In this document: piece by piece, positions 13,490 through 26,323 of the stretch
Layout: each line of letters begins with the position of its first letter
How positions within the stretch are numbered: the stretch's first letter is position 1
NCBI GenBank assembly: GCA_964626085.1
Contig: CAZVCQ010000002.1
Coordinates: forward strand, 1 to 27,755
Reading direction: 5' to 3'
From: an uncultured bacterium
GTDB taxonomy: Bacteria > Hydrothermota > Tepidihabitantia > Tepidihabitantales > Tepidihabitantaceae
DNA length: 27,755 bases
Made by a program: the position numbers and the translations under genes
The notes under the pieces: model-generated
What the model saw: only the letters and a program-made list of their open reading frames with translations
Databases searched by the model: none
What the model was told of the DNA's origin: nothing

Positions 13490-14326
13490 ATGAAGTTTGC
13501 ATCTGTGCTGTTGGCTATCGGCTGCGTGGTTTCGACTCTCTCGGCCCAGTGGTTGGAAACGACGATATCATTGCCCGACAGCTCCTTGCCTAATGACCTG
13601 TGCTACAACCCGACCGACAACAAGGTCTACGCTGCCAACTGGGGTACGGACAACGTTACGGTCATCGACGGCGCGACCAATACGATCGTCGCCACCATTC
13701 CGACCGCCGCCGAGCCGTCGTACTTCTGCTACAACTCACAGGGCAACAAGGTCTACTGCACGCACTACACGTCCGGCCTGGTTTCGGTCATCGACGCCGG
13801 GGTCGACACCGTGCTTGTGGTGATTCCTGCGGGCCCGTATGCGAGCAGCATCTGCTACAACCCGACCGACAATAAGGTCTACTGCCCGAGCTCCATGAAC
13901 AACAGCGTCTACGTGATCGACTGCGCGGCCGACACGGTCATCGCCAGGATCGCCTGCGGCGACTATGCCTGCGCGATGGTGCACAACCCGGTGCAGAACC
14001 GGGTCTACGTGATGAACCTAAGCGCCAATTCCATCTCGGTCATCCGCGACAGTACGCCGGCGGGAATCGAGGAAGGCCCGATGCCGCGAGCTGCCAGACT
14101 CCGGACGGCTGCCACCATCGTGCGCGGAGAGCTGCGCATGGAGGCTGGCTCAAGCGCAAGCTCAAGCCCAAGCTGGCTGCTGGACGCGGCGGGGCGGAGG
14201 GTCATTGAGCTTCAGGCCGGCGCGAATGACGTGTCCAACCTCGCGCCCGGCGTCTATTTCGTGCGTTCGGAGCCAGGCGCGGTGCTTGATGCGTTAAGCG
14301 CCACCAAGGTCGTGATTCAGAGGTAG
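13490..14326 (+). CDS. Secreted YVTN/YncE-like beta-propeller protein (short form) with C-terminal sorting domain
   Basis: GGAGG RBS and signal peptide at ATG 13490, CYNPTDNKVY...V.VIDG repeats, CTD TIVRG...LLDAAGRRV..L..GANDVS.LAPGVYFV...KVVIQR. Confidence 0.88.
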   Translation: MKFASVLLAIGCVVSTLSAQWLETTISLPDSSLPNDLCYNPTDNKVYAANWGTDNVTVIDGATNTIVATIPTAAEPSYFCYNSQGNKVYCTHYTSGLVSVIDAGVDTVLVVIPAGPYASSICYNPTDNKVYCPSSMNNSVYVIDCAADTVIARIACGDYACAMVHNPVQNRVYVMNLSANSISVIRDSTPAGIEEGPMPRAARLRTAATIVRGELRMEAGSSASSSPSWLLDAAGRRVIELQAGANDVSNLAPGVYFVRSEPGAVLDALSATKVVIQR

Positions 14327-14338
14327 GGAGGAATGACA

Positions 14339-15904
14339 ATGCTGAGAGCGTGTTCATTGCTGTTTGTTTTCGCCGCCGCGGCCATCGCTCAGCCCGATAC
14401 TACCTGGGTGCGCCGCTACGACGGCCCGGGCCACGGCTGGGACGAACCGTCCGTGATGAGGCTGATCGGCGACCGGGTATACGTGGCGGGCCAGAGCCGG
14501 GGCGACGGTTCGGGCTACGACTACGCAACCGTGGTCTATGACCTCGACGGCGACGATCTTTGGTCCGCTCGGTACAACGGGACCGGCAACGACCGTGACG
14601 AGATCACGGATCTCGTTGTCGACAGCGACGGCAACGTCATAGTGACCGGGTACAGCGAGGCCCCCGGCGGCAACTCGAACTGGGTGACCATCAAGTACGA
14701 CCAGAACGGCGACACGCTCTGGCTGGGGCGTCACAACTCAGGCGCCGGGGCTGCGGGAGTAGCGGTCGACGACTCCGGCAACGTCTATGTCACCGGCGGC
14801 GCGGGCAGCTACCCCTACGTCCGCCTCAATACCATTCGCTACGGTCCGGATGGAACCCAGCACTGGCTCGCCGAGTACTACCCGCCGGCACCGAACCGGG
14901 TCAACACGCCACGCGCCATCGCCATCGACCCCAACGGCTGCCCGATTGTCGCCGGCGGAGGCACGAGAGACTCCACCGGCCACGACATCCTCATCATCAA
15001 GTACAACCCGGTGACCGGCGAATCGCTCTGGGTCGCCCGCTACACGTCGTCCGGCGACGAAGGCGATGCCGCAGGCGCGATGGTTCTCGACGCCTCCGGG
15101 AACATCTACGTCACCGGGTATTTCCACGGCGGGACAACCGACCGGGACATCATCACGATGAAGTACTCGCCCGACGGGGCGCTGCTGTGGCTGGACACCT
15201 ACGACGGGCCGAACAACGGTAGTGACGCCGGGGTGGATATCGAACTCGGCGAGGACGGCAACATCTATGTCGCCGGCAACGTCAACCGCGGGTCGTCCAA
15301 CGACGATATGGCAGTCATTAAGTACAACCCGGCGGGAGAGACGCTCTGGGTCAGGCTGTACAACTACCCGACAAACCGCACGCACCGGGCCTACGCCCTC
15401 GCACTCGACGGCGAGAACAACGTCTACGTCTGCGGCTATCTCTGGACCGGGACCTCCTACGACTACCTGACGGTCAAGTACGACACCGACGGCACCGAAT
15501 TGTGGTATGTCCGCTACAACACCTACGAAGGCCAGGAGGACGAAGCCTACGACATCGCCCTCGACGACGCCGGTTTCGTCTACGTCACCGGGCGGGCCAA
15601 GGACTCGCTTAACAACTTCGACTACGCCACCATCAAGTACAGCCAGTTCAGCGGCATCGCGGCAGAGCCGAAGGTGGAAGTCCGAAGAACGAACTGCCCG
15701 ACCATCGTCCGCGGTGTCCTGTTCCTGGACGGGGGCTGTCCCCACACCGGGGCTGTCCCCGAGGCTGCCCTGCTCGACATCTCCGGCCGCAAGGTGCTCG
15801 ACCTCAAGCCGGGCGCCAACGATGTCCGCCACCTCGCGCCCGGTGTCTATTTCGTGACACAGCAGAACATCGGCTGCAGCAAGAAGATCGTTGTGCGAGA
15901 ATAG
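14339..15904 (+). CDS. Secreted SBBP-type beta-propeller repeat protein with C-terminal sorting domain
   Basis: Repeats of W..RY.G....D......D..GN.YVTG......D..TIKY. The second ATG (14339) fits the RBS spacing better than 14333. Confidence 0.88.
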   Translation: MLRACSLLFVFAAAAIAQPDTTWVRRYDGPGHGWDEPSVMRLIGDRVYVAGQSRGDGSGYDYATVVYDLDGDDLWSARYNGTGNDRDEITDLVVDSDGNVIVTGYSEAPGGNSNWVTIKYDQNGDTLWLGRHNSGAGAAGVAVDDSGNVYVTGGAGSYPYVRLNTIRYGPDGTQHWLAEYYPPAPNRVNTPRAIAIDPNGCPIVAGGGTRDSTGHDILIIKYNPVTGESLWVARYTSSGDEGDAAGAMVLDASGNIYVTGYFHGGTTDRDIITMKYSPDGALLWLDTYDGPNNGSDAGVDIELGEDGNIYVAGNVNRGSSNDDMAVIKYNPAGETLWVRLYNYPTNRTHRAYALALDGENNVYVCGYLWTGTSYDYLTVKYDTDGTELWYVRYNTYEGQEDEAYDIALDDAGFVYVTGRAKDSLNNFDYATIKYSQFSGIAAEPKVEVRRTNCPTIVRGVLFLDGGCPHTGAVPEAALLDISGRKVLDLKPGANDVRHLAPGVYFVTQQNIGCSKKIVVRE

Positions 15905-15913
15905 GAGGATTCG

Positions 15914-18454
15914 ATGAAAGTAACTGCGTTCTTTCTGATTCTGATGGCGGCGTTTGTCGCGCTGCCTGAGCCTGCATCTGCAGAGGAATTCCTGATTGAC
16001 GCAAGCTTCGCGTACGAACCTTGCCCGGGCGAGCAGGAACTTCCCGCCGTGGCGTTCGACGGTACCAACCACCTCGTGGTCTGGCGCAACTTCGACGGCA
16101 GTCAGTATGACATCCTCGGCGTCAGGGTCAGCAGCGGCGGCGAGGTTATGGACTCCGCTTTCATCGCCATCGCGGCCGACAGCGGACACCAGCAGGCCCC
16201 GGCGGTCGCGTACGACGGAACGAACTGGCTCGTGGTCTGGCAGGATGCCCCGGCCGGCAACCAGATTCGCGGCGCCAGGGTAGGGCCTGACGGCACCATC
16301 CTTGACCCGGACGGATTTCCAATCCTGGTCGGAGGTGGCAGGCAGCAACCGGCTGTTGCCTTTGACGGAGCCAACTACATGGTCGTATGGGCCGAGATGC
16401 GTGGAGGTAATCGTGATGTTCTCGGTGCCCGCGTTACGCCGGGCGGCGCGGTCCTTGATAGCGCTGGTTTCGTCATATCCGGTGCGGCCAATCATCAGCA
16501 GGCCCCCTCGGTCGCGTTCGGCGCCTCGGGTTATCTCGTTGCCTGGGAGGACTTCCGGAGCGGAAGCGGCTTCGATTTGTACGCGGCCCGGGTGACAACG
16601 GCGGCGCAAGTGCTCGACACAGCCGGGATTGTCATGTCGGCGGCGGCAAATACGCAGTCCGGCTCCGCGGTCGCGTTCGACGGGACCAACTATCTTGTCG
16701 CTTGGGACGACATACGCAACGGCTACAATCCGGATGTATTCGCGACCCGCGTCAGCCAGGACGGTACGGTGCTCGACCCGGACGGAATCGCGGTTTCCAG
16801 AACCCCCTACGGTGACCAGTGGGGGGTGGCGGTGGCGTTTGACGGGACGAACTTCCTTGCGGTCTGGTCCGACTACTACCTTCGTGAAATCTACGGTGCA
16901 CGGGTTTCGTCCGCCGGCGCGGTGCTCGACACGCTCGGGTTCGCCGTCTCCCACGGCTACGACAACTCCGACCTCTACCCGGCAATAGGGTTCGACGGGG
17001 CCGACTACTTCGTCGCATGGCAGTACAAGTACAACACCCACTACGACATCCACGCCGCGCGGGTCACGCCCGGCACCACGGTGCTGGACCCGACCGGCAT
17101 CGTCATCACCCGCGGCGCCCCGGTGGCTTACTACGAGTTCAACCCGGCGGTCGCCTCGAACGGTACCGACTACCTCGTCGTCTGGGATGACTCCCGTCGA
17201 AACGAGGCCGACATCTTCGGCGCGCGGGTCAGCCAGGGCGGCAGCGTGCTGGACCCGACCGGCATCGCGATATCCTTCGCTGAGGAGAACCAGGACTATC
17301 CCTCAGTCGCCTTCGGCAGTTCGAACTACCTTGTGGTCTGGGAGGACGAGCGCGACGGTGGCAGCGAGGACATCTACGCCGCGCGGGTCAGCCCGAACGG
17401 AATGCTCCTCGACCCGGCCGGCATCGCGATATCCATGGCCGACGGCGTGCAGGAGGATGCGCAGGCTGCGTTTGACGGGACCAACTTCCTGGTAGTGTGG
17501 CAGGACTACCGGAATACGCACTCCGACATATACGGGGCGCGTGTCAGCCCGGGCGGCCTCGTGCTTGATACTGCGGGCATACCGGTTGCGGGTCTGCAGT
17601 CGGCAGAGGAAGACGCTTCGGTTACGTTCGGCGGCACCAACTACCTGGTGGTCTGGGAGGACTACCGGGATGCGGACGCTGACATCTATGCCGCACGGGT
17701 GAGCCCGGCTGGCTCGGTGCTGGACCCAACCGGGTTCGCGGTCGCAACGGCAGGAGAGGACCAGTGCTTTCCGGTGGTCGCGTTCGACGGAACCAACTAC
17801 CTGGTGGTATGGCATGATGCGCGGGGCGCTTCAGACAACGACATCTACTGTGCCCGGGTCACGACGGCGGGCTCGGTGCTCGACCCGGACGGCATCGCGG
17901 TGTGCACCTCGGCTGAGAACCAGGAGTACGCGAGTGTCGCGTTCGACGGGACCGACTACCTGATTGCCTGGGAGGACTACCGCAACGATCCAGATACGTG
18001 TGACGTCTACGGCGCGCGGGTCAGTACAGCGGGCGCCGTGCTCGCACGCTTCCCGGTGTCGGTCCACGCGAACTGGCAGTGCGACCCGGCTCTTGCCCGA
18101 GGCGCTGGCAGCCAGGTCCTGACCGTGTTCACCGGTTGGGTCGACGAGCACCAGGGTAGCAACTACGACGCCGAGCGAACCTGGGGCACATTCGACATGG
18201 CTGGCGTAGCCGAGCACCCGACGTCCGCGGTGACCGGCTCACTGCCCGTTGCGACCGTCGTGCGTGGAATCCTGCGGCTGCCCGGAGCCCCGACCTCGGT
18301 CCCTAGGTCCTTTGCCTGTCTGCTAGATGCCTCCGGCCGGAAGGTGTTTGATCTGGAGCCCGGGCCGAACGATGTGAGCCGGCTGGCGCCGGGCGTGTAC
18401 TTCGTCAGAACCAATCAAGAGAAGCGACTGCAGAGAATAGTCATCGTCAAATAA
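15914..18454 (+). CDS. Large secreted repeat protein (PAVAFDGTNYLVVW repeats, probable beta-propellers) with C-terminal sorting domain
   Basis: About 12-13 repeats of P.VAFDGTNYLVVW.D.R....DIYGARV...G.VLDP.GI; signal peptide and CTD. Confidence 0.88.
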   Translation: MKVTAFFLILMAAFVALPEPASAEEFLIDASFAYEPCPGEQELPAVAFDGTNHLVVWRNFDGSQYDILGVRVSSGGEVMDSAFIAIAADSGHQQAPAVAYDGTNWLVVWQDAPAGNQIRGARVGPDGTILDPDGFPILVGGGRQQPAVAFDGANYMVVWAEMRGGNRDVLGARVTPGGAVLDSAGFVISGAANHQQAPSVAFGASGYLVAWEDFRSGSGFDLYAARVTTAAQVLDTAGIVMSAAANTQSGSAVAFDGTNYLVAWDDIRNGYNPDVFATRVSQDGTVLDPDGIAVSRTPYGDQWGVAVAFDGTNFLAVWSDYYLREIYGARVSSAGAVLDTLGFAVSHGYDNSDLYPAIGFDGADYFVAWQYKYNTHYDIHAARVTPGTTVLDPTGIVITRGAPVAYYEFNPAVASNGTDYLVVWDDSRRNEADIFGARVSQGGSVLDPTGIAISFAEENQDYPSVAFGSSNYLVVWEDERDGGSEDIYAARVSPNGMLLDPAGIAISMADGVQEDAQAAFDGTNFLVVWQDYRNTHSDIYGARVSPGGLVLDTAGIPVAGLQSAEEDASVTFGGTNYLVVWEDYRDADADIYAARVSPAGSVLDPTGFAVATAGEDQCFPVVAFDGTNYLVVWHDARGASDNDIYCARVTTAGSVLDPDGIAVCTSAENQEYASVAFDGTDYLIAWEDYRNDPDTCDVYGARVSTAGAVLARFPVSVHANWQCDPALARGAGSQVLTVFTGWVDEHQGSNYDAERTWGTFDMAGVAEHPTSAVTGSLPVATVVRGILRLPGAPTSVPRSFACLLDASGRKVFDLEPGPNDVSRLAPGVYFVRTNQEKRLQRIVIVK

Positions 18455-18463
18455 GGAGGTACC

Positions 18464-19840
18464 ATGAAGTTCGCAACCGTGCTGCTGGCCGTATGCTGTT
18501 TGCTGTCAGCCACGTCGGCACAGTGGCTGGAGACGACGATATCATTGCCCGCCAGTTCCTGGCCCAATGATCTGTGCTACAACCCAACCGACAACAAGGT
18601 CTACTCTGCCAACTACAACATCGGCAGCATCACAGTCATCGACGCCGCGACCAATGCGATCGTCGCCACCATTCCGACCGCCGCCGAGCCGTCGTACTTC
18701 TGCTACAATTCACAGGGCAACAAGGTCTACTGCACTCACTACAGCGACAGCCTTGTGACGGTAGTCCACGGCACCGGTGACAGCGTCATAACGACGTTTC
18801 GAGCCGGACTGAACGCAAGCAGCATCTGCTACAACCCGCAGGACAACAAGGTCTATTGCCCGAATTCCTCAAGCGACAGCGTCTTCATAGTCGACGCTGC
18901 GGCCGACACCGTCATCGCCGTCGTCGGCACGGGCGACATTCCGAAGCAGCTCTGCTACAATCCGACCGACAACAAGGTCTACTGCTCGAACGTCGGCGAC
19001 AGGACCGTGACGGTGATTGACGGCGCGGGCGACACCGTCATTGCTACGGTCGCGGCCGGCTCCGCGCCCGGCGTCATGGTCCACAATGTCCTGAATGACA
19101 TGGTCTACGTCGCCAACGCGGGCGGTGACAGCGTCATGGCTATCGATGGCGCGGCGGACACCGTCATCGCCACCATCCCGACCGGCGACGTGCCCCGCGC
19201 CCTGTGCTTCAATCGGGAGTACAACAAGGTCTACTGCGCGAACGCCGGCAGCGACAACATCTCGGTCATCGACTGCGCCACCAACGCTGTCATCGCCACG
19301 GTCCCGGCGGGCGACGCGCCCTTTGCGATTCTGAGCAACGACGTCAACAACACCGTGTACTGCTCGAACTCGACCAGCGACGAAGTCGTGGTTGTCGACT
19401 GTGCCGCCGATTCGGTCATCGCCAGAATCGCGTGCGGCGACTACGCCAGCCTGATGGCGCACAACCCGGTGCAGAACCGCGTCTACGTGCTGAACATAGA
19501 CGACAATTCCATTTCGGTCATTCGCGACAGTATGCCGGCGGGAGTCGAGGCGGACCCCACGCCGCAGGCCGCAAGTCACAAGCCCGCGGCTACTATCGTC
19601 CGCGGAGTGCTGGACCTGGGAGTAGGCAGTAGACAGCAGGCAGTAGACAGGGCGGCACTGTCTGACAGGGGTCGCTGCGGCCAACTGCTGGATGCGACGG
19701 GGCGGAAGGTCGCGGAGCTTCACCCCGGCGCGAATGATGTGAGCGGGTTGGCGCCGGGCGTGTACTTTGTCCGTGTGCAGCTGGCCGTCGGCCCCGCGCT
19801 GTCAGCCGCAAGCAGCTACAAGGTCGTAATCCACAAATAG
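18464..19840 (+). CDS. Secreted YVTN/YncE-like beta-propeller protein (long form) with C-terminal sorting domain
   Basis: Paralog of the 13490 gene with about four extra CYN..NKVYC repeats. Confidence 0.88.
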   Translation: MKFATVLLAVCCLLSATSAQWLETTISLPASSWPNDLCYNPTDNKVYSANYNIGSITVIDAATNAIVATIPTAAEPSYFCYNSQGNKVYCTHYSDSLVTVVHGTGDSVITTFRAGLNASSICYNPQDNKVYCPNSSSDSVFIVDAAADTVIAVVGTGDIPKQLCYNPTDNKVYCSNVGDRTVTVIDGAGDTVIATVAAGSAPGVMVHNVLNDMVYVANAGGDSVMAIDGAADTVIATIPTGDVPRALCFNREYNKVYCANAGSDNISVIDCATNAVIATVPAGDAPFAILSNDVNNTVYCSNSTSDEVVVVDCAADSVIARIACGDYASLMAHNPVQNRVYVLNIDDNSISVIRDSMPAGVEADPTPQAASHKPAATIVRGVLDLGVGSRQQAVDRAALSDRGRCGQLLDATGRKVAELHPGANDVSGLAPGVYFVRVQLAVGPALSAASSYKVVIHK

Positions 19841-19849
19841 GGAGGAATG

Positions 19850-21061
19850 ATGACCAAGAACGTATTTCTGTTGGTGCTTGTGCTGGCGGTCGCCGGGACC
19901 GCACGGGCTGATTCGCTCAACTGCCGGGGGCTCGGGCGCTTTGACACACCGGGTCTGGCCGTTGGTGTGGCGGTGTCCGGGAACTACGCATACGTGGCGG
20001 ATGGGGATTCGGGGTTGCGTATCATCGACGTGAGTAATCCGGGAAGTCCGTTTGAGGCAGGGCACCAGGCAACGCCTGGCTATGCCCGCCGTGTGGCGGT
20101 ATCCGGGAACTACGCATATGTGGCGGCCGCGGATTCGGGCCTGCGCATTGTTGACGTAAGCAGCCCGCAAAGCCCGCATGAAGCCGGGCACTACGTCACG
20201 CCGAGTTGGGCCTATGTCGTGGCGGTGTCGGGCGACTTTGCCTACGTTGTGGACGAAGATACGCTGCGCATCATTGACGTGAGTAATCCGCAGAGCCCGG
20301 CTGAGGTCGGGCGTTTCGGCGACCCGGGCTTTGCCTTTGCCGTGGCCGCGTCCGGGAACTACGTCTATTTGGCGGACGACAACCAGGGACTGCGCATCAT
20401 CGACGTGAGTAACCCGCAAAGTCCGTACGAGGCCGGCTACCACATCACATCGGACTGGGCCTATGGCGTGGCGGTATCCGGCAGCTTCGCCTATGTGGCT
20501 GCCCGCTCCGCGGGACTGTGCATCATCGACGTTAGCAACCCGCAGAGTCCGTATGAGACCGGTTCCTACGCCGTCATGGCCACCGGCGCGGCGGTGTCCG
20601 GCAACTTCGTCTACGTCGTGGACGGTTCTGCAGACCTGTACGTCATCAACGTGGGTGACCCGCAGAGCCCGAGTGAGGCGGGGCACTATGGCACTCCGGG
20701 TACCCCATGTGTCGTGGCCGTGTCCGGGAACCTCGCCTATGTCGCGGACTGGGATTCGGGCCTGAGCATCATCGAGTTCTACGGTGCGGGGATTGAGGAA
20801 GTGCCGCTCGCCGAAGTACGAGCGGCGGATCCGATGCCGACGGTTGTGCGTGGGGTGCTGGTGCTCGGCGCTGTAGGCAGTAGACAGAATACAGAATACA
20901 GGGGAGGACTTATGGATGCGGCGGGGCGGAAGGTGATGGAGCTTCACGCCGGCGCGAACGATGTGAGCGGGCTGGGCCCGGGCGTGTACTTTGTGCGTGC
21001 GGAGCAGGCACAAGCCCAAGCTCAAGCGCAGGCAATCCGCAGGGTCATGATCGTGAGATAA
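19850..21061 (+). CDS. Secreted LVIVD-repeat protein with C-terminal sorting domain
   Basis: About seven repeats of [11 protein letters not shown]....GL.IIDVSNP.SP.E.G. The start could be 19847 or 19850. Confidence 0.9.
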
Positions 21062-21070
21062 GGAGGACTC

Positions 21071-23953
21071 TTGAAGCGTAGCATTTTCATCGCGCTGTTG
21101 GTTTCGTTCACTTCCGCGCGGGCGCCGGTCGAGAACTGGGTCAGTCACTACAACCGGGTCAACAGCGACGACGAGGGTCTCGTCCTTGCGACTGATGCCG
21201 CGGGTAGCGTCTACGTTGCCGGTCGGAGCTGGGGACCGAACCACGACCCGGCCCTCCTGACGGTGAAGTACGATTCGACCGGTGGCGAGGTCTGGACCGC
21301 GCGGTTCGACGAGGCGGGCATCGACGCCCCGGCCGCGATTGCGGTTGATGCGTCCGGCAACGTCTACGTGACCGGGCAGGCGGGGCAGGCGGTGAACAAG
21401 TCCGACCTCATCACGTTGAAGTATTCGCCGTCCGGTGCGGAGTTGTGGCGCAGCCGCTACTCGGATCCGTCCGACGCGAGCGACGTGGCGGCGGGGATTG
21501 CGCTCGCGCCCGACGGTGCGGTCTACGTCCTCGGTTCGAGCTGGATGCCCGGGGGTTGTGCGGTCGTGCTCGTCCGCTACAGCTCGACCGGGACCGAGGA
21601 GTGGGTGAGCCGGTTCTTCCCTAAGGATTCAACCTGGAACTGCGGCCGGGCGGTGGCGGCGGACGCGGGCGGCGCGTGGGTTGCCGGCGCTTCGGACGGC
21701 AGCTACCTCGTGATGCGTTACCGCGCGAACGGTGACACCGCCTGGGTCCGGTACTACAGCGGGGCCGGACAGGGCGACGCCCGCGGCCTGGTGCTTGACG
21801 GCTCGGGCGTGGTCGTCACCGGCCAGCTCGTCACGTCGGGCATGGACCTTGACTATGTGACGGTGCGGTTCGATTCGAGCGGGCAGAGCGACTGGTCCGC
21901 GGTCTACGACGGTCCGGCCCACAGTCACGACCAGGCCTACGCAATCTGCCGCGATTCGGCGGGCGGCATCTATGTCACCGGCCGCACCCAGGCTTCGCTG
22001 CGCAACGTCGACTACGCCACCGTCAAGTACTCGCCGTCCGGCAGCCAGCGCTGGGTCGCGCTCTACTCCGGTCCGGATACCGCCGGAACCGACGTGGCCT
22101 GGGCGGTGGCTTCGGGTCCGCACGGCCGGGTCTGCGTCACCGGCCAGAGCTGGTCCGACGTGGCGGCTGAGGATTTCGACTACGCCACCGTCTGCTATGA
22201 CACCGGCGGTACCCGGCGCTGGGTCGACCGCTATTCCGGGACCGGCGGGGGACGCGACGAGGCGGTCTGCCTGGGGTTCACGCGGTCCGGGCGGGTGGTG
22301 GTCAGCGGCCGCAGCCTCAATGCGTCCGGGGATTTCGATTTCGTCACGATCGCTTTCGACACCGCCGGCGGCCGGGCGTGGCTGGCGACGTACGCCGGGC
22401 CGGGCGGTCCGGGCACCGGCGGCGAGTCCGGGCTCGCAATCGGCCGCGACCGGTCGAGCAATCTCTATGTGTCGGGCGGAGACGCGCAGGACGTCATCAC
22501 CGTGAAGTACGACGCCGGGGGCAATGAGCTGTGGCAGCGGGTTTATGACGGCGGCAGCCGCGGCATCGACGCCTGGCGGGGGATGACCGTGACCGAGGAC
22601 GGCGACGTCCGGGTCCTGTCCCGGAGCCAGGTCCCGCTGCCGGCTCCGCTGACAACCGTCTACGCGGTCGCGCGCTACTCACCGGACGGCGACGAACGCT
22701 GGGTCGCAACCTACTTCGGCCCGGACAGCACCGACGCGGACCCGGTCGCGCTCTGCACCGACGCCTCGGGAAACAGCTACGTGACCGGCGGCGTGCTCGA
22801 CTCGTTCACCGTCGCCTGGCACACCATCAAGATCGACTCGACCGGCGCCCGGCGGTGGCTCGCGGTGATGAGCCGGACGGATACACTCCAGCTTTACTCC
22901 AACCCGCGCTGCATCGCGGCCGACGACAACGGCTACGTCTACGTCGGCGGCGAACAGGACAGCCTCGGCGGGTTCGAAGACATGATGCTGATTCGCTACC
23001 GGCCCGACGGCGGCGAGGACTGGCGCGCCCGCTACGCCGGCCCGGGCCTCGGCATCGACCTGCTCCAGTGCCTGGTCGTGGACGCGGCGGGCAACGCCTT
23101 TGCCAGCGGCCAGAGTTGGGACTCCGTCACCGGCTACAATTTTGCGACCATCCGGTTCACCCCGACCGGCGAGACCGCCTGGGTCCGACGCTACGCCGGG
23201 CCGGGCGGGCTGAGCAATGAAGACAAGCCGTGCGCCGTGGCGCTGGACGACTCGGGCAACGTCCTCGTGACCGGGTCGAGCTGGGCGGATTCCTCGATGG
23301 ACTACCTCACCGTCAAGTACGCGCCGGACGGGCAACAGCTCTGGACCGCGCGCTACGACGGTTCCGGGCATCACACCGACGTGCCAACCGCGGTCACGGC
23401 CGACCGCGCCGGCAACGTCTACGTCACCGGCTACGGGTGGCAGGATGGAACGCTCTGGGATTATACCACCGTGATGTACTCGGCTGGCGGCGCGGAGCGT
23501 TGGTCGCTCAGGTATCACGGAACCGGCAACTACTACGACAAGTCGCTTGGCCTCGTTGTCGAGGACTCGATGCACCTATGGGTCACCGGTGCGAGCGTGG
23601 CCGCGGGCCAGAACTCAGACATGGTGACCATCTACTACGGTCCGGACCCGGGCCTGGCCGGTGCCGAACCGGTGTCGATGCGGGCCCGGCTGATGGTTCG
23701 TCCCGGCATCGCGACGCGTCGGGTCAGCGCCGCGCTCTTTCTGCCGACCGGCGGATCGGTCCGGCTCGGCATCTACGATTGCAGTGGCCGGCTCGTCCGG
23801 TTGTTCGTCGAGGCCGAACTGCTGCGGGGACGTCATGACTTCTCCTGGAACGGCGTCGACGAACGCGGCCGCCGCTGCCCGGCCGGCGCTTATTTCATCC
23901 GGGTGAACACGCCGTCCGGCCCGGCGGTCGAACGCGTCGTCTTCATCCGCTAG
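21071..23953 (+). CDS. Large secreted SBBP-type beta-propeller repeat protein with FlgD-Ig-like C-terminal domain
   Basis: Tandem W...Y.G...D....A.D..GN.YVTG repeats. The CTD IYDCSGRLVR...FSWNGVDERGRRCPAGAYFIR differs from the other CTDs. TTG start with AGGAGG RBS. Confidence 0.88.
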   Translation: MKRSIFIALLVSFTSARAPVENWVSHYNRVNSDDEGLVLATDAAGSVYVAGRSWGPNHDPALLTVKYDSTGGEVWTARFDEAGIDAPAAIAVDASGNVYVTGQAGQAVNKSDLITLKYSPSGAELWRSRYSDPSDASDVAAGIALAPDGAVYVLGSSWMPGGCAVVLVRYSSTGTEEWVSRFFPKDSTWNCGRAVAADAGGAWVAGASDGSYLVMRYRANGDTAWVRYYSGAGQGDARGLVLDGSGVVVTGQLVTSGMDLDYVTVRFDSSGQSDWSAVYDGPAHSHDQAYAICRDSAGGIYVTGRTQASLRNVDYATVKYSPSGSQRWVALYSGPDTAGTDVAWAVASGPHGRVCVTGQSWSDVAAEDFDYATVCYDTGGTRRWVDRYSGTGGGRDEAVCLGFTRSGRVVVSGRSLNASGDFDFVTIAFDTAGGRAWLATYAGPGGPGTGGESGLAIGRDRSSNLYVSGGDAQDVITVKYDAGGNELWQRVYDGGSRGIDAWRGMTVTEDGDVRVLSRSQVPLPAPLTTVYAVARYSPDGDERWVATYFGPDSTDADPVALCTDASGNSYVTGGVLDSFTVAWHTIKIDSTGARRWLAVMSRTDTLQLYSNPRCIAADDNGYVYVGGEQDSLGGFEDMMLIRYRPDGGEDWRARYAGPGLGIDLLQCLVVDAAGNAFASGQSWDSVTGYNFATIRFTPTGETAWVRRYAGPGGLSNEDKPCAVALDDSGNVLVTGSSWADSSMDYLTVKYAPDGQQLWTARYDGSGHHTDVPTAVTADRAGNVYVTGYGWQDGTLWDYTTVMYSAGGAERWSLRYHGTGNYYDKSLGLVVEDSMHLWVTGASVAAGQNSDMVTIYYGPDPGLAGAEPVSMRARLMVRPGIATRRVSAALFLPTGGSVRLGIYDCSGRLVRLFVEAELLRGRHDFSWNGVDERGRRCPAGAYFIRVNTPSGPAVERVVFIR

Positions 23954-24111
23954 TTCCGTCGACCGTCCGGTCTGGCGATTCGCCCAAACCCGTTCACCGC
24001 CAGGTAAGCCTGGAATGCGATGGTCCGTGCGGCGGCGAGCGGGAGGTTCTCTTGAGCACCGGACTGCTTGCGGCGGTGCTGGCAGCAGTCCGTTCGAAGC
24101 AGCGTGCCCTG

Positions 24112-24244
24112 TATCACTGGATCGGCAAGGACCGGACAGGAAAGGAGGTGTGCGGGGGTGTACCTGGCCGAGTTGGACAGAGGAGACCGGTCGGAGACCG
24201 TCCGACTGGTGAAGATGCGCTCGCCGGGTTCGGGAGTACGATAG
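24112..24244 (+). pseudogene. Frameshifted orphan FlgD-Ig-like CTD remnant
   Basis: YHWIGKDRTGKEVC(G), then a frameshift in the G5 run at 24154-24158, then VYLAELDRGDRSETVRLVKMR...TAG followed directly by GAGG. Confidence 0.65.
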
Positions 24245-24277
24245 GAGGAAAGGGTGAGAGCATTCGCAGCATCGAGC

Positions 24278-24305
24278 TTGACAGCGGTGCGGCGGGGACT
24301 ATGAT
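24278..24305 (+). promoter_or_regulatory. Internal sigma70-type promoter
   Basis: TTGACA-16 bp-TATGAT, 23 nt before ATG 24329. Confidence 0.65.
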
Positions 24306-24328
24306 GAGCCGAAATCGACAGGGCTAGG

Positions 24329-24811
24329 ATGAAACGACATTCACAACTCCGCGCCAACATCACTATCGTCGTGGGCATCGTCGTGCTGTGCGTCAGCACC
24401 GCCACCGGCGAGCTGTGGAAGACGACCGACACCGGGACGATCTGGCTGCGGGAGAACACCTGCACCAACTGGGCGCTGTACGATGCCGGTTTCCCGGAGC
24501 CGGGGACCGGCTACGCGGTCGGCGCGGTCGATGTAGTCATCAAGACCGGCTACGGCGGGGCGGTCGAGGATGAATGCCCGCTGCAGTGGCCGCACTCCCC
24601 TATGCCTGCGACCTTGCTCTCCGGAGCCGCGTTCAGACTGCCGGGCAACCGAGCGGCTCGATTCCTCGACATCTCAGGCTGGAAGGTCGCAGAGCTGGTA
24701 CCGGGCGTGAACGACGTCCGGCATCTGGCGCCCGGCGTGTACTTTGTGCGTCTGGCATCAAGCGTAATGCGTGATGCGTCGGGCGTGTCCAAGGTCATGA
24801 TTCTGAAATAG
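24329..24811 (+). CDS. Short secreted protein: signal peptide, single BNR/YCF48-like repeat and C-terminal sorting domain (probably an internally deleted gene)
   Basis: LWKTTDTG..W and FP..GTGYAVG...V.IKTG.GG followed by a full CTD. Confidence 0.7.
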   Translation: MKRHSQLRANITIVVGIVVLCVSTATGELWKTTDTGTIWLRENTCTNWALYDAGFPEPGTGYAVGAVDVVIKTGYGGAVEDECPLQWPHSPMPATLLSGAAFRLPGNRAARFLDISGWKVAELVPGVNDVRHLAPGVYFVRLASSVMRDASGVSKVMILK

Positions 24812-24820
24812 GGAGGAACT

Positions 24821-26323
24821 GTGAAGCGTATGGTCGTCGTTGTGCTGCTGCTGGCGCTGGGAATTGCCGTGGCCTGGGGTCCGGACACCAGGCTGACAGA
24901 CAATTCCTATTCCGACAATACCTACTGGAGCTGCCAGCGCCGCGTCGCCGTGGACTCGGGAGGCCGAATCCACGTCATCTGGTACGTGATGAACTCCGGG
25001 CTCGGTACCTATCGGTTCCAGGTCTACTACAAGCGGTTCAATCCCGGCACGGGCTGGACCCAGGACACAATGCTCAGCGGGGACCTCTATGCCGACAGCA
25101 CCCACAACAAGTACCCGGCGATTGCGGTTGATTCGTCCGGCCTTGTCATCGCGGCCTGGGGCAGCGACACGTCGGAGAATGCCGACGCCTTCATCTACTA
25201 CAAGACCTGTCTGCCTGAGGGCTCAGGCAACGGCGGCTGGGACGCAACCTCGCGGCTCCTGTCCAGCTCGGGTCCTGACTTCACCCGCGAATGTCCCAAC
25301 CTTGCCGCGACGCCGGATGGTCACGTCCACGCGGTATGGAAGGAGGTCAAGCCGGGCGGCGGCATCTGCGTGGCCTATCGCGAGCTTATCGACACGGTCT
25401 GGCAGGCGCAGGCTGACCTCGAACTGAACTCCAACTACAAGGTCTACCCGGCAGTCGCGGGCGGGCCGGACAACAGCGTGCACGTGGTCTGGCACGGCCG
25501 CAGCGGCCCGAGCGGCTACTACAACGTCTGGTACAAGGCCCGGAACGACACGACGTGGGGAGCGATGGAGAACGTCTCTAACGGCGCCCGGCATCAGATG
25601 AATCCCTCAGTCACCGCAAACCCGGTGACGAGCGAACCGCACGTGCTCTGGCAGGGGCAGGACGCGAACGGGACCGGGCGAGCCATCCACGCGTATCGGA
25701 CCGCGGCCGGCTGGCAACCGCGCGACACGGTATCCGAGCCCGGCCTCGAATACGGGCAGGGCACCGGCCAGATTGCGTTCACTCCGGATGGGCTTGGCCA
25801 CGCGGTCTGGGAAGGCGAGAGCGATTCCTCTCCAACCGTCGGCCAGATTCGCTACAGCCGGCGGTCGGTCATGGGAACCTGGAGCGCGCCGGAGAACATC
25901 ACAGCGGCAACGAACACGCGCGAGCGCCCGTCCATAGCAAACGGCGGCAACTCCGCCTCGCCGTTCGACCTCCATCTTGTCTGGTCCGACTACCGCGACG
26001 GCAACTCGGAGATGTACTACAAGCATGATTCCATCGTCCTGGCCATCGGTGAGGGCGTGAGACCGGCGGTCTGGAACACGTGGCCCGCGGCGAGTCTTGT
26101 CCGCGGTGTGCTGGTACTGCGCGGGCTTGGGACACGATCCGGATTGTCGGACAATCCGGTCATGTCCCGCGCAGTGCTGCTGGACGCGGCGGGGCGGAAG
26201 GTCATAGAGCTTCATGCCGGTGCGAATGATGTGAGCCGGCTGGCTCCCGGCGTCTACTTCGTCCGGGCCGTCAGCCGTGAGCTGTCGGCTGTGAGCGGTC
26301 ACAAGGTCGTGATTCAGCGGTAG
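24821..26323 (+). CDS. Secreted beta-propeller protein (HVVW repeats, BNR/sialidase-like fold) with C-terminal sorting domain
   Basis: Repeats of P.IA.D..G..HVVW....YY....W; GTG start with GGAGG RBS; CTD. Confidence 0.85.
   Translation: MKRMVVVVLLLALGIAVAWGPDTRLTDNSYSDNTYWSCQRRVAVDSGGRIHVIWYVMNSGLGTYRFQVYYKRFNPGTGWTQDTMLSGDLYADSTHNKYPAIAVDSSGLVIAAWGSDTSENADAFIYYKTCLPEGSGNGGWDATSRLLSSSGPDFTRECPNLAATPDGHVHAVWKEVKPGGGICVAYRELIDTVWQAQADLELNSNYKVYPAVAGGPDNSVHVVWHGRSGPSGYYNVWYKARNDTTWGAMENVSNGARHQMNPSVTANPVTSEPHVLWQGQDANGTGRAIHAYRTAAGWQPRDTVSEPGLEYGQGTGQIAFTPDGLGHAVWEGESDSSPTVGQIRYSRRSVMGTWSAPENITAATNTRERPSIANGGNSASPFDLHLVWSDYRDGNSEMYYKHDSIVLAIGEGVRPAVWNTWPAASLVRGVLVLRGLGTRSGLSDNPVMSRAVLLDAAGRKVIELHAGANDVSRLAPGVYFVRAVSRELSAVSGHKVVIQR
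26123..26168 (+). repeat. Palindromic element inserted in frame within a CTD
   Basis: gggcttgggacacgatcc-ggattgtcggacaatcc-ggtcatgtccc, read as GLGTRSGLSDNPVMS. Confidence 0.8.

Follow-up and report, generated by a model that had tools for sequence, protein, structure and literature searches.

The DNA analysed here (the window) is contig C2, 27,755 nucleotides at its full length, of a 3.52-Mb, 661-contig metagenome-assembled genome (MAG; 62% G+C, 75% complete) from an uncultured lake bacterium of candidate division WOR-3. Its + strand carries, at 13.4-26.3 kb, eight tightly packed genes, g1 to g8, the passengers of which are beta-propeller, SBBP, LVIVD or BNR-like (Pfam). The products of seven of these genes end in a related C-terminal domain (CTD) of ~80 residues with the motifs VRGVL, LLDxxGRKV, GANDV, PGVYFVR and KVVI, while the eighth, g6, has a tail of FlgD-Ig type instead. 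The domains resemble sorting domains of the secretion system of type IX (T9SS), and the subject of this text is the DNA of three sites within them (A, B and C), which often consists of short tandem repeats, most commonly with a unit of seven bases (heptamers). Below, G000 denotes the source genome, C-numbers its contigs, L-numbers loci fetched from relatives, and G009, G014 and so on the genomes of these relatives.

The domains are called T9SS-like sorting domains rather than certified members of TIGR04183, because six of the seven score 15.7-19.8 bits, under the curated cut-off of 23, and that of g7 gives no match; the FlgD-type tail of g6 scores 19.0 bits. No window protein matches PF18962 at E<0.01. 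An AlphaFold model of the domain (pLDDT 74) displays a seven-strand beta-sandwich, for which the best PDB matches are CTDs of type IX cargo, i.e., 8glk_D (NucA CTD), 7pq4 (RgpB CTD) and 8qb1, with TM scores of 0.55-0.64 and probabilities of 0.99-1.00 at weak E-values (5e-3 and above). The predicted fold, a C-terminal beta-sandwich of ~80 residues, thereby resembles the CTDs that have been solved. Type A CTDs (TIGR04183/PF18962; solved for RgpB and for translocon-bound NucA) share this sandwich and the GVYFV...KVV end with the domains described here, which differ in their scores below the cut-off, their expanded, repeat-encoded loops and a host outside Bacteroidota. Matches to the family were found only in candidate division WOR-3 records and MAGs, and lake-water metagenomes contain near-identical DNA.

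As for the machinery of type IX secretion, the genome encodes SprA (382 bits including neighbours, above the cut-off) and a PorU-like protein (358.6 bits; the cut-off of 420 is not reached), the gene of which adjoins a PorV-like gene on C112. Altogether eleven PorV-like matches are seen in this 75%-complete genome (C112:2356-6534 and 10 further loci), one of them adjoining the PorU-like gene, and the genome may hold several shuttle paralogues.

In the AlphaFold model, site A is the linker before strand 1, site B a disordered, low-confidence loop (residues 17-32) between strands 2 and 3, and site C the link between the last two strands, which agrees with the proposal, made in an earlier note on this DNA, that the three sites are permissive. 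The arrays of the window are listed below together with g1, the first of the cargo genes. The p values compare the lag identity, i.e., the identity of bases a given number of positions apart, with that of random in-frame coding segments of equal length; TRF stands for Tandem Repeats Finder and ORF for open reading frame.

13490-14326, + strand: g1, cargo gene (beta-propeller; ORF and Pfam), sorting domain at ~14100-14323, TIGR04183 15.7 bits against a cut-off of 23
14080-14107, + strand: g1 site A, weak heptamer phasing; lag 7 0.52, p=0.04, marginal
14151-14174, + strand: g1 site B, hexamer (NCAAGC) x4 read SSASSSPS; lag 6 0.83, p=0.001; TRF period 6, 4.5 copies
14263-14304, + strand: g1 site C, decayed six-unit heptamer array of GCGTNNN type; lag 7 0.51, p=0.018
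15732-15760, + strand: g2 site B, 12-mer GGGGCTGTCCCC repeated once at 17-base spacing (from the sequence; not of period 6-8)
18294-18309, + strand: g3 site B, two octamers; lag 8 0.88; loop kept in the G009 orthologue
19558-19585, + strand: g4 site A, AAGCCNC-type heptamers read PQAASHKP; lag 7 0.71, p=0.002
19622-19649, + strand: g4 site B, GTAGGCA/GTAGACA heptamers, equal to a 14-mer x2; lag 7 0.76, lag 14 0.93; TRF period 14, 100%
19777-19818, + strand: g4 site C, six GC-initial heptamers; lag 7 0.51, lag 14 0.57, p=0.02
20873-20900, + strand: g5 site B, heptamers GTAGGCA GTAGACA GAATACA x2; lag 7 0.86; TRF period 7, 100%
21005-21034, + strand: g5 site C, hexamer CARGCN x5 read Q-A; lag 6 0.75
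24748-24789, + strand: g7 site C, GCGTNNN heptamers x6 read LASSVMRDASGVS; lag 7 0.63, p=0.0015
26116-26175, + strand: g8 site B, palindrome of 60 bases, nested, with in-frame reading LGTRSGLSDNPVMSR; perfect 10-nt arms in two pairs
26267-26301, + strand: g8 site C, GCNGTNA heptamers x5 read AVSRELSAVSGH; lag 7 0.71, lag 14 0.76, p=0.002
345-382, + strand: heptamer array AGACGCY, reverse complement of the GCGTCTG type; TRF period 7; overlaps the start of ORF 354-767
791-830, + strand: heptamer array of the g7 site C family; TRF period 14; would read HQASGLRRRASS in ORF 770-1411 if the GTG start is used

Every array named in the earlier note is thus present at its coordinates, although not all are of the kind described. 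The four heptamer arrays at site C, all of which end at caaggtc, are distinguished from coding DNA at p 0.0015-0.02, and the site B heptamers of g4 and g5 as well as both hexamer arrays at p near 0.001. Of the remaining site B elements, that of g2 is a spaced 12-mer and not a short-period array, and the 8-mers of g3 number just two; among the site A heptamers only those of g4, whose AAGCCNC family also occupies site A of many paralogues, stand out clearly. The palindrome of g8 is real and slightly wider than the 26123-26168 given before, with arms at 26116-26125/26166-26175 and 26139-26148/26150-26159. Its family recurs at site B of paralogues, also in another frame as PRDMTE...DRVPRP, and the model confidence there is low (pLDDT under 50). 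A copy of the g1 site C array in L021 differs by 2 bases and is nearer to the unit, and the GCNGTNA family of g8 site C has 27 members across genomes.

The resemblance drawn earlier between the GCGTNNN heptamers and those that flank a small gene (354-767) holds as well, with arrays at 345-382 (as reverse complement) and 791-830. These inverted GCGTCTG-family arrays flank the ORF; the first spans its start codon and the second falls in the first codons of ORF 770-1411. Inverted array pairs that bracket genes were rejected as a general feature, the frequency of inverted same-family neighbours being 4.0% against 3.2% at random.

Seven-base periodicity of the loop DNA

A hidden Markov model (HMM) built from the seven window domains identified 104 C-terminal copies in the genome. 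At site C the best period was 7 in 53 of 81 loops, at site B in 44 of 81 loops and at site A in 48 of 77 linkers, compared with 22 of 300 control coding segments; arrays with periods of 6, 8 or 14 also occur at the three sites and are rarer. The pooled lag-7 identity was 0.493 (C), 0.404 (B) and 0.455 (A), where random coding DNA gave 0.256, shuffling of the codon order 0.29 and synonymous resampling 0.35 (C) and 0.34 (B). Periodicity above a codon-shuffled background had been set beforehand as the test, and the observed values lie well above it, with z scores of 17.7 (synonymous resample) and 24.3 (codon-order shuffle) for site C and 10.3 and 17.0, respectively, for site B, i.e., in the range 10-24; none of 300 shuffles reached the observed value. 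The other outcome named beforehand as a refutation, loops conserved as peptides with synonymous changes that disrupt the register of the heptamers, did not apply either. Redundancy among paralogues does not account for the signal, which persists in 37 site C loops of <60% mutual identity (lag 7 0.448, z 10.5 and 13.2).

At site C the identities at lags 7, 14 and 21 are 0.49, 0.48 and 0.45, compared with 0.26-0.30 in coding controls. Lags 14 and 21 are thus not stronger than lag 7, and the period-3 signal usual for coding DNA is missing in the loops; therefore the repeat unit is 7 bases of DNA and not a 7-residue peptide. Chance and purely peptide-level repetition are ruled out by these lag spectra together with the control p values and the shuffles. 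The same conclusion, that DNA rather than peptide is repeated, had been based on a hexamer read in two frames, and CAAGCN indeed appears as S-S/A/P at 14151-14174 but as Q-A at 21005-21034. Independence of the reading frame is informative for this hexamer; for heptamers it is automatic, because any frame of one strand yields the same cyclic 7-residue peptide.

The peptide families of site C are accordingly the three-frame readings of one heptamer each: SAVSRQP corresponds to CAGCCGT, KPQAASR/H to AAGCCGC, QASSVxR to CAAGCGT, EGLGTRG to GGGRCNA and GPETEDGRP to GACCGNA. Families of other periods at this site are the hexamer QAQAQA and the octamer SRGQGFED, from GGATTCNA. Site B contains heptamers of DRGQKTE type (GGACAGA) and GVGSRQ type, Ser-rich hexamers and palindromes. 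Within arrays, mismatches were not significantly concentrated at one position of the unit (share 0.46-0.50 vs null 0.42-0.43). The column entropies of loop families reveal both codon-position and heptamer-phase effects and are only indicative, the families having been picked by peptide pattern.

The reading frame is retained: of 91 sorting-domain tails, 89 are intact and none ends in a frame-shifted final strand. The lengths of site C loops of heptamer type group at 7-8, 13-15 and 19-25 residues, hexamer-type loops have 7, 9, 11, 13 or 15 residues, and loops that hold no repeat peak at 9 residues. The expectation that loop lengths change in 21-bp steps is borne out, with 6-base steps in the case of hexamers, and the lengths fit a unit-wise change under frame constraint.

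A unit that is not a multiple of three, placed at site C just before the final strand, brings to mind contingency loci, in which gain or loss of a 7-base unit would shift the frame, remove the last strand and switch secretion off; a non-triplet repeat within the frame of surface or secreted proteins is indeed common to both cases. Apart from the intact frames noted above, the arrays here are short (3-6 units), degenerate and imperfect, and neither off-state alleles nor length polymorphism was seen. Variants of 7, 14 or 21 bases were absent from every loop in Logan contigs from four lake metagenomes at 3-5x word depth, a weak test in view of the low depth and because contigs drop rare variants; the loop-length polymorphism anticipated in the earlier note was accordingly not found. 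An apparent truncation of an orthologue in G009 was traced to the end of a contig. These data argue against a frequent on/off switch, within the limits of that test, and we regard a contingency function as very improbable.

What the lake contigs do contain is two single-nucleotide polymorphisms (SNPs) in loops and a compensated +1/-1 pair. The SNPs that recur in lake metagenome runs are 20872 T>A and 21031 G>A, both in repeat loops of g5; the latter, seen in at least 2 lake runs, changes CAGGCA to CAAGCA, a better copy of the hexamer unit.

Exchange of loops between genes

Orthologues of g8 in six congeners share 72-86% protein identity where full length. Their strands can be aligned, yet loops B and C belong to unrelated families, and two of these orthologues have a nearly identical core and tail while both loops differ. 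Other orthologue pairs likewise swap loop families.

The clearest example is the gene C16:0-1665 compared with its counterpart in L077, where the DNA is 98-100% identical to the end of the passenger and again from mid-core through the site C array to the stop codon. Between these stretches lies a patch of ~120 bases that can be seen in the alignment to differ far more and that holds another array family; it covers the last part of site A, strand 1, loop B and the codons for LLDxxGRKV. As judged from this alignment, the patch bears the signature of a short-patch gene conversion, with another paralogue as the putative donor. Crossovers occur as well. The G009 orthologue of g3 is ~95% identical up to LLD and then continues with a g5-like tail that has a QAQAQA loop. 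In the same genome (L083, G009:C140) the g3 orthologue is directly followed by the g8 orthologue (window 15914-18454 and 24821-26323); this adjacency and the hybrid domain together identify g4-g7 as a putative insertion or deletion that arose when sorting-domain cores recombined. A joint of this kind is also seen in L021, where a different passenger precedes g2 and the 3' half of the g1 domain, both of which are kept.

The families at sites B and C are unlinked (permutation p=0.19, with a coarse classification), and core identity is 0.712 in pairs that share a site C family and 0.703 in pairs that do not. A search for orthologues with the LVIVD cargo of g5 returned just paralogues, at an identity of 56% or less.

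The loop turnover that could be resolved is homologous, with a replaced patch that includes conserved codons and crossovers that lie in cores. This result does not support the active repeat-writing or repeat-inserting process that the earlier note had suggested.

Heptamer arrays across the genome and genus

The repeats are not confined to sorting domains. TRF reported 1062 rows of period 7 genome-wide, against 237, 326 and 474 for periods 6, 8 and 9, with 249 canonical heptamer units. A strict scan (four units, >=85% lag identity, no N) found 297 heptamer arrays, compared with 0-31 for the other periods (4-12) and 0 in a block-shuffled genome. In four genomes of the same genus the array density is 8-24 per 100 kb, and 0 arrays were found when 60-100 kb were sampled from each of six genomes that belong to other genera in the family or order (G014, G012, G016, G018, G011 and G021; loci L093-L130 and L133-L162), one of which has the same G+C content and genome size.

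The arrays are found in intergenic DNA, immediately ahead of start codons and, read in frame, within further proteins, MutS among them. Unit families known from the loops are as common elsewhere in the genome as in sorting domains, and are shared with intergenic DNA and unrelated proteins. Outside the CTDs, 68 of 448 arrays lie in coding-looking frames, compared with 44% of random positions; coding DNA is thus depleted three-fold, in an approximate classification by an open-frame and codon-score test. Within the 104 cargo genes, 1-2 arrays are found in 104 kb of passenger DNA vs 18 (strict scan) to 82 (TRF) in 33.6 kb of sorting domain.

Such a genome-wide excess of heptamers is known from long simple sequence repeats, which, as summarised in two later papers, have units of 5-11 bases with heptanucleotides predominant (Mrazek 2007, via PMC4679880, PMC4692102). 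Published heptamers include the cyanobacterial short tandemly repeated repetitive (STRR) sequences, GGGNATC of Xanthomonas/Nostoc and TAACTGA of Beggiatoaceae (PMC4679880, PMC4692102). Slippage has been proposed as their cause, and the preference for 7 bases is left unexplained there (PMC4679880, PMC4692102). The likeness extends to short 7-base tandem arrays of few copies (often four), which number in the hundreds per genome, are patchily distributed among lineages and are enriched outside genes and next to start and stop codons. The source genome differs in that a sizeable share of its arrays is in frame and concentrated in one domain family, it has many unit families (249) where known heptamer-repeat genomes have one to three, many of its arrays are degenerate (lag 7 0.5-0.9) where the published definition has perfect or near-perfect repeats, and the host is a WOR-3 genus, unlike the known cases.

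One unit family stands in a fixed position relative to genes. Among 33 arrays of (NCAATCT)3-4, for which four units is the preferred length, 24 have an ATG behind them at offset 3 exactly (e.g., C7:20037, C81:374, C90:97 and C162:6436), where 11% of random 12-mers have any ATG; they resemble published heptamer repeats that lie close to start codons. Long conserved flanks are common to several copies, which may belong to a multi-copy gene or element.

Arrays directly before start codons, together with the Beggiatoaceae and Xanthomonas heptamer repeats that adjoin gene ends (PMC4679880, PMC4692102), raise the idea that the coding arrays are cis-acting RNA or DNA signals, for example for the following gene in a packed cluster. 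Repeats are, however, no more frequent in site C loops that have a gene close by (repeats in 20 of 37 loops followed by a gene within 40 bases vs 35 of 58 of the other loops; Fisher p=0.67), and any start is 120-250 bases away from sites A and B, which makes this explanation the least probable of those considered.

MutS, a core repair enzyme, is repeat-expanded as well. Compared with the compact MutS of another genus, the proteins of four congeners and the source genome have in-frame inserts at a minimum of 5 variable sites, and the MutS of all ten congeners gives split HMM matches. In the source genome, the inserts include an array hairpin and heptamer arrays whose lag-7 identity reaches 0.74, and a composite insert of PPKTLDSGL type is found at two different sites. 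The MutS of the genus is ~50-140 residues longer than that of a sister genus (G000 C485:6-2576; loci L173-L177); its insert positions include one just before Walker A and one after VEYLHG, and the sequences differ between congeners. Loss of mismatch repair was rejected as a cause of the arrays, MutS being present in all 31 relatives.

Origin and meaning of the arrays

We consider it fairly likely that the loops contain slippage-born repeats that are tolerated in permissive places and shuffled among paralogues by gene conversion. In this scheme, arrays would arise and change length by slipped-strand copying, a step that is inferred, and the steps after it are shown by the data above. Arrays in coding DNA persist where an in-frame low-complexity insert is harmless; in the family of ~100 CTDs such places are the linker ahead of strand 1 (site A), the loop that joins strands 2 and 3 (site B) and the hairpin of the last two strands (site C). 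Selection keeps the frame, so that heptamer loops step by 21 bases (three units, 7 residues) and hexamer loops by a single unit. Many paralogues have domain cores that are conserved as DNA, and loop cassettes pass from gene to gene by crossovers and short-patch gene conversion between them, so that orthologues in sister species have different loop families. The shuffling needs no dedicated enzyme.

Several observations weigh against this explanation. Slippage itself was not observed, the lake contigs offering no length variant of any loop. For the patch in the C16/L077 pair, the best match to a donor reaches 81% identity, the completeness of the genome being 75%. Dozens of unlinked loci have specific units in common, which slippage from random seeds does not predict. 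In G014, a genome of another genus, several sorting-domain loops hold heptamer or octamer arrays of related families, while none was found in a 100 kb sample of that genome. Finally, the array density of sorting domains exceeds that of non-coding DNA; therefore tolerance alone is insufficient, and spread by paralogy or selection is needed. The G014 loops, the recurrent units and the (NCAATCT) arrays next to start codons are compatible with selection that acts on classes of loops, with a function of some arrays or with a lineage-specific repeat-generating activity.

The recurrence of unit families at unlinked loci could instead reflect a dedicated writer or inserter, or arrays acting as tiny mobile elements, which would place ready-made arrays at many sites, the loops included. 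Consistent with such placement are a burst that all sampled genomes of the genus show and that is absent from those sampled in other genera, the fixed architecture of the (NCAATCT) arrays and the composite insert that occurs twice in MutS. However, the flanks of two abundant non-CTD unit families (81 + 31 arrays; the site B palindrome family was outside this comparison) have no conserved ends except for the start codon in one family, unlike defined elements of the kind of MITEs (miniature transposable elements with inverted repeats) or Rickettsia palindromic elements (RPEs). The replacement resolved above carries conserved flanking codons with many differences, like homologous conversion, and inverted same-family neighbours are not enriched, at the 4.0% given above, while direct ones are, at 13.5%. 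No candidate enzyme was found, and no search was aimed at one. A writer or mobile element therefore seems an unlikely source.

RPEs and other small repeats inserted in frame into genes (review PMC10969869) nevertheless offer a parallel, in that repeats of non-coding type stand in frame in unrelated genes at sites compatible with the fold, as they do here in MutS and in the 68 non-CTD coding arrays; the palindromes at site B and the hairpin insert of MutS come closest. RPEs are defined elements of ~150 bases with a conserved sequence, in contrast to tandem heptamers of 20-45 bases that have no defined ends and spread among sorting domains by homologous exchange. The tandem 7-base structure is also unlike the template/variable repeat pair of a diversity-generating retroelement.

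The high array density of sorting domains may alternatively indicate that loop families are functional classes under selection, either address codes for PorV-like shuttles or diversifying surfaces, with repeats as raw material. The families AVSRELSAVSCH, EEPQAASHKPQAVR, QAQAQA and GPETEDGRP recur across species, some related families occur in the other genus that lacks genome-wide arrays (100 kb sampled), and third codon positions are about twice as variable as first and second ones, in a comparison biased by the choice of families by peptide pattern. The 11 PorV-like matches would suit specialised shuttle proteins that recognise type IX signals, as reported in a 2025 paper (PMC12618676). Against such classes, loop families are exchanged freely in orthologous cargo of sister species, loop B is predicted to be disordered, variation within families follows heptamer phase more strongly than codon position, and the same arrays are found in MutS and between genes; we hold functional classes to be rather improbable, on a par with a dedicated writer.

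A further idea, which we find somewhat more doubtful still, is that a lineage-specific activity, such as a replicase or repair system that has been altered, or an enzyme that copies a template, generates or copies 7-base arrays and seeds them genome-wide. If so, new loops would continually be made in secreted proteins and also in MutS, and a repeat-expanded MutS could feed back on repeat stability.

The sorting domains are documented here as joints at which recombination exchanges both cargo cassettes and loop cassettes from one gene to another. We found no paper that links tandem heptamers to type IX sorting domains. The repeat-encoded loops may help explain why the domains score below the HMM cut-off, and they mark three insertion-tolerant sites of the type IX sorting domain that are useful for cargo tagging and engineering. 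The contrast between this genus and the sampled genomes of other genera opens the question of the 7-base preference to comparative genomics. Non-triplet microsatellites are normally kept out of genes; here, non-triplet repeats are regular loop material in ~100 secreted proteins and a core repair enzyme, and the genome thereby offers an example, found in nature, of how slippage-type DNA gives rise to peptide sequence.

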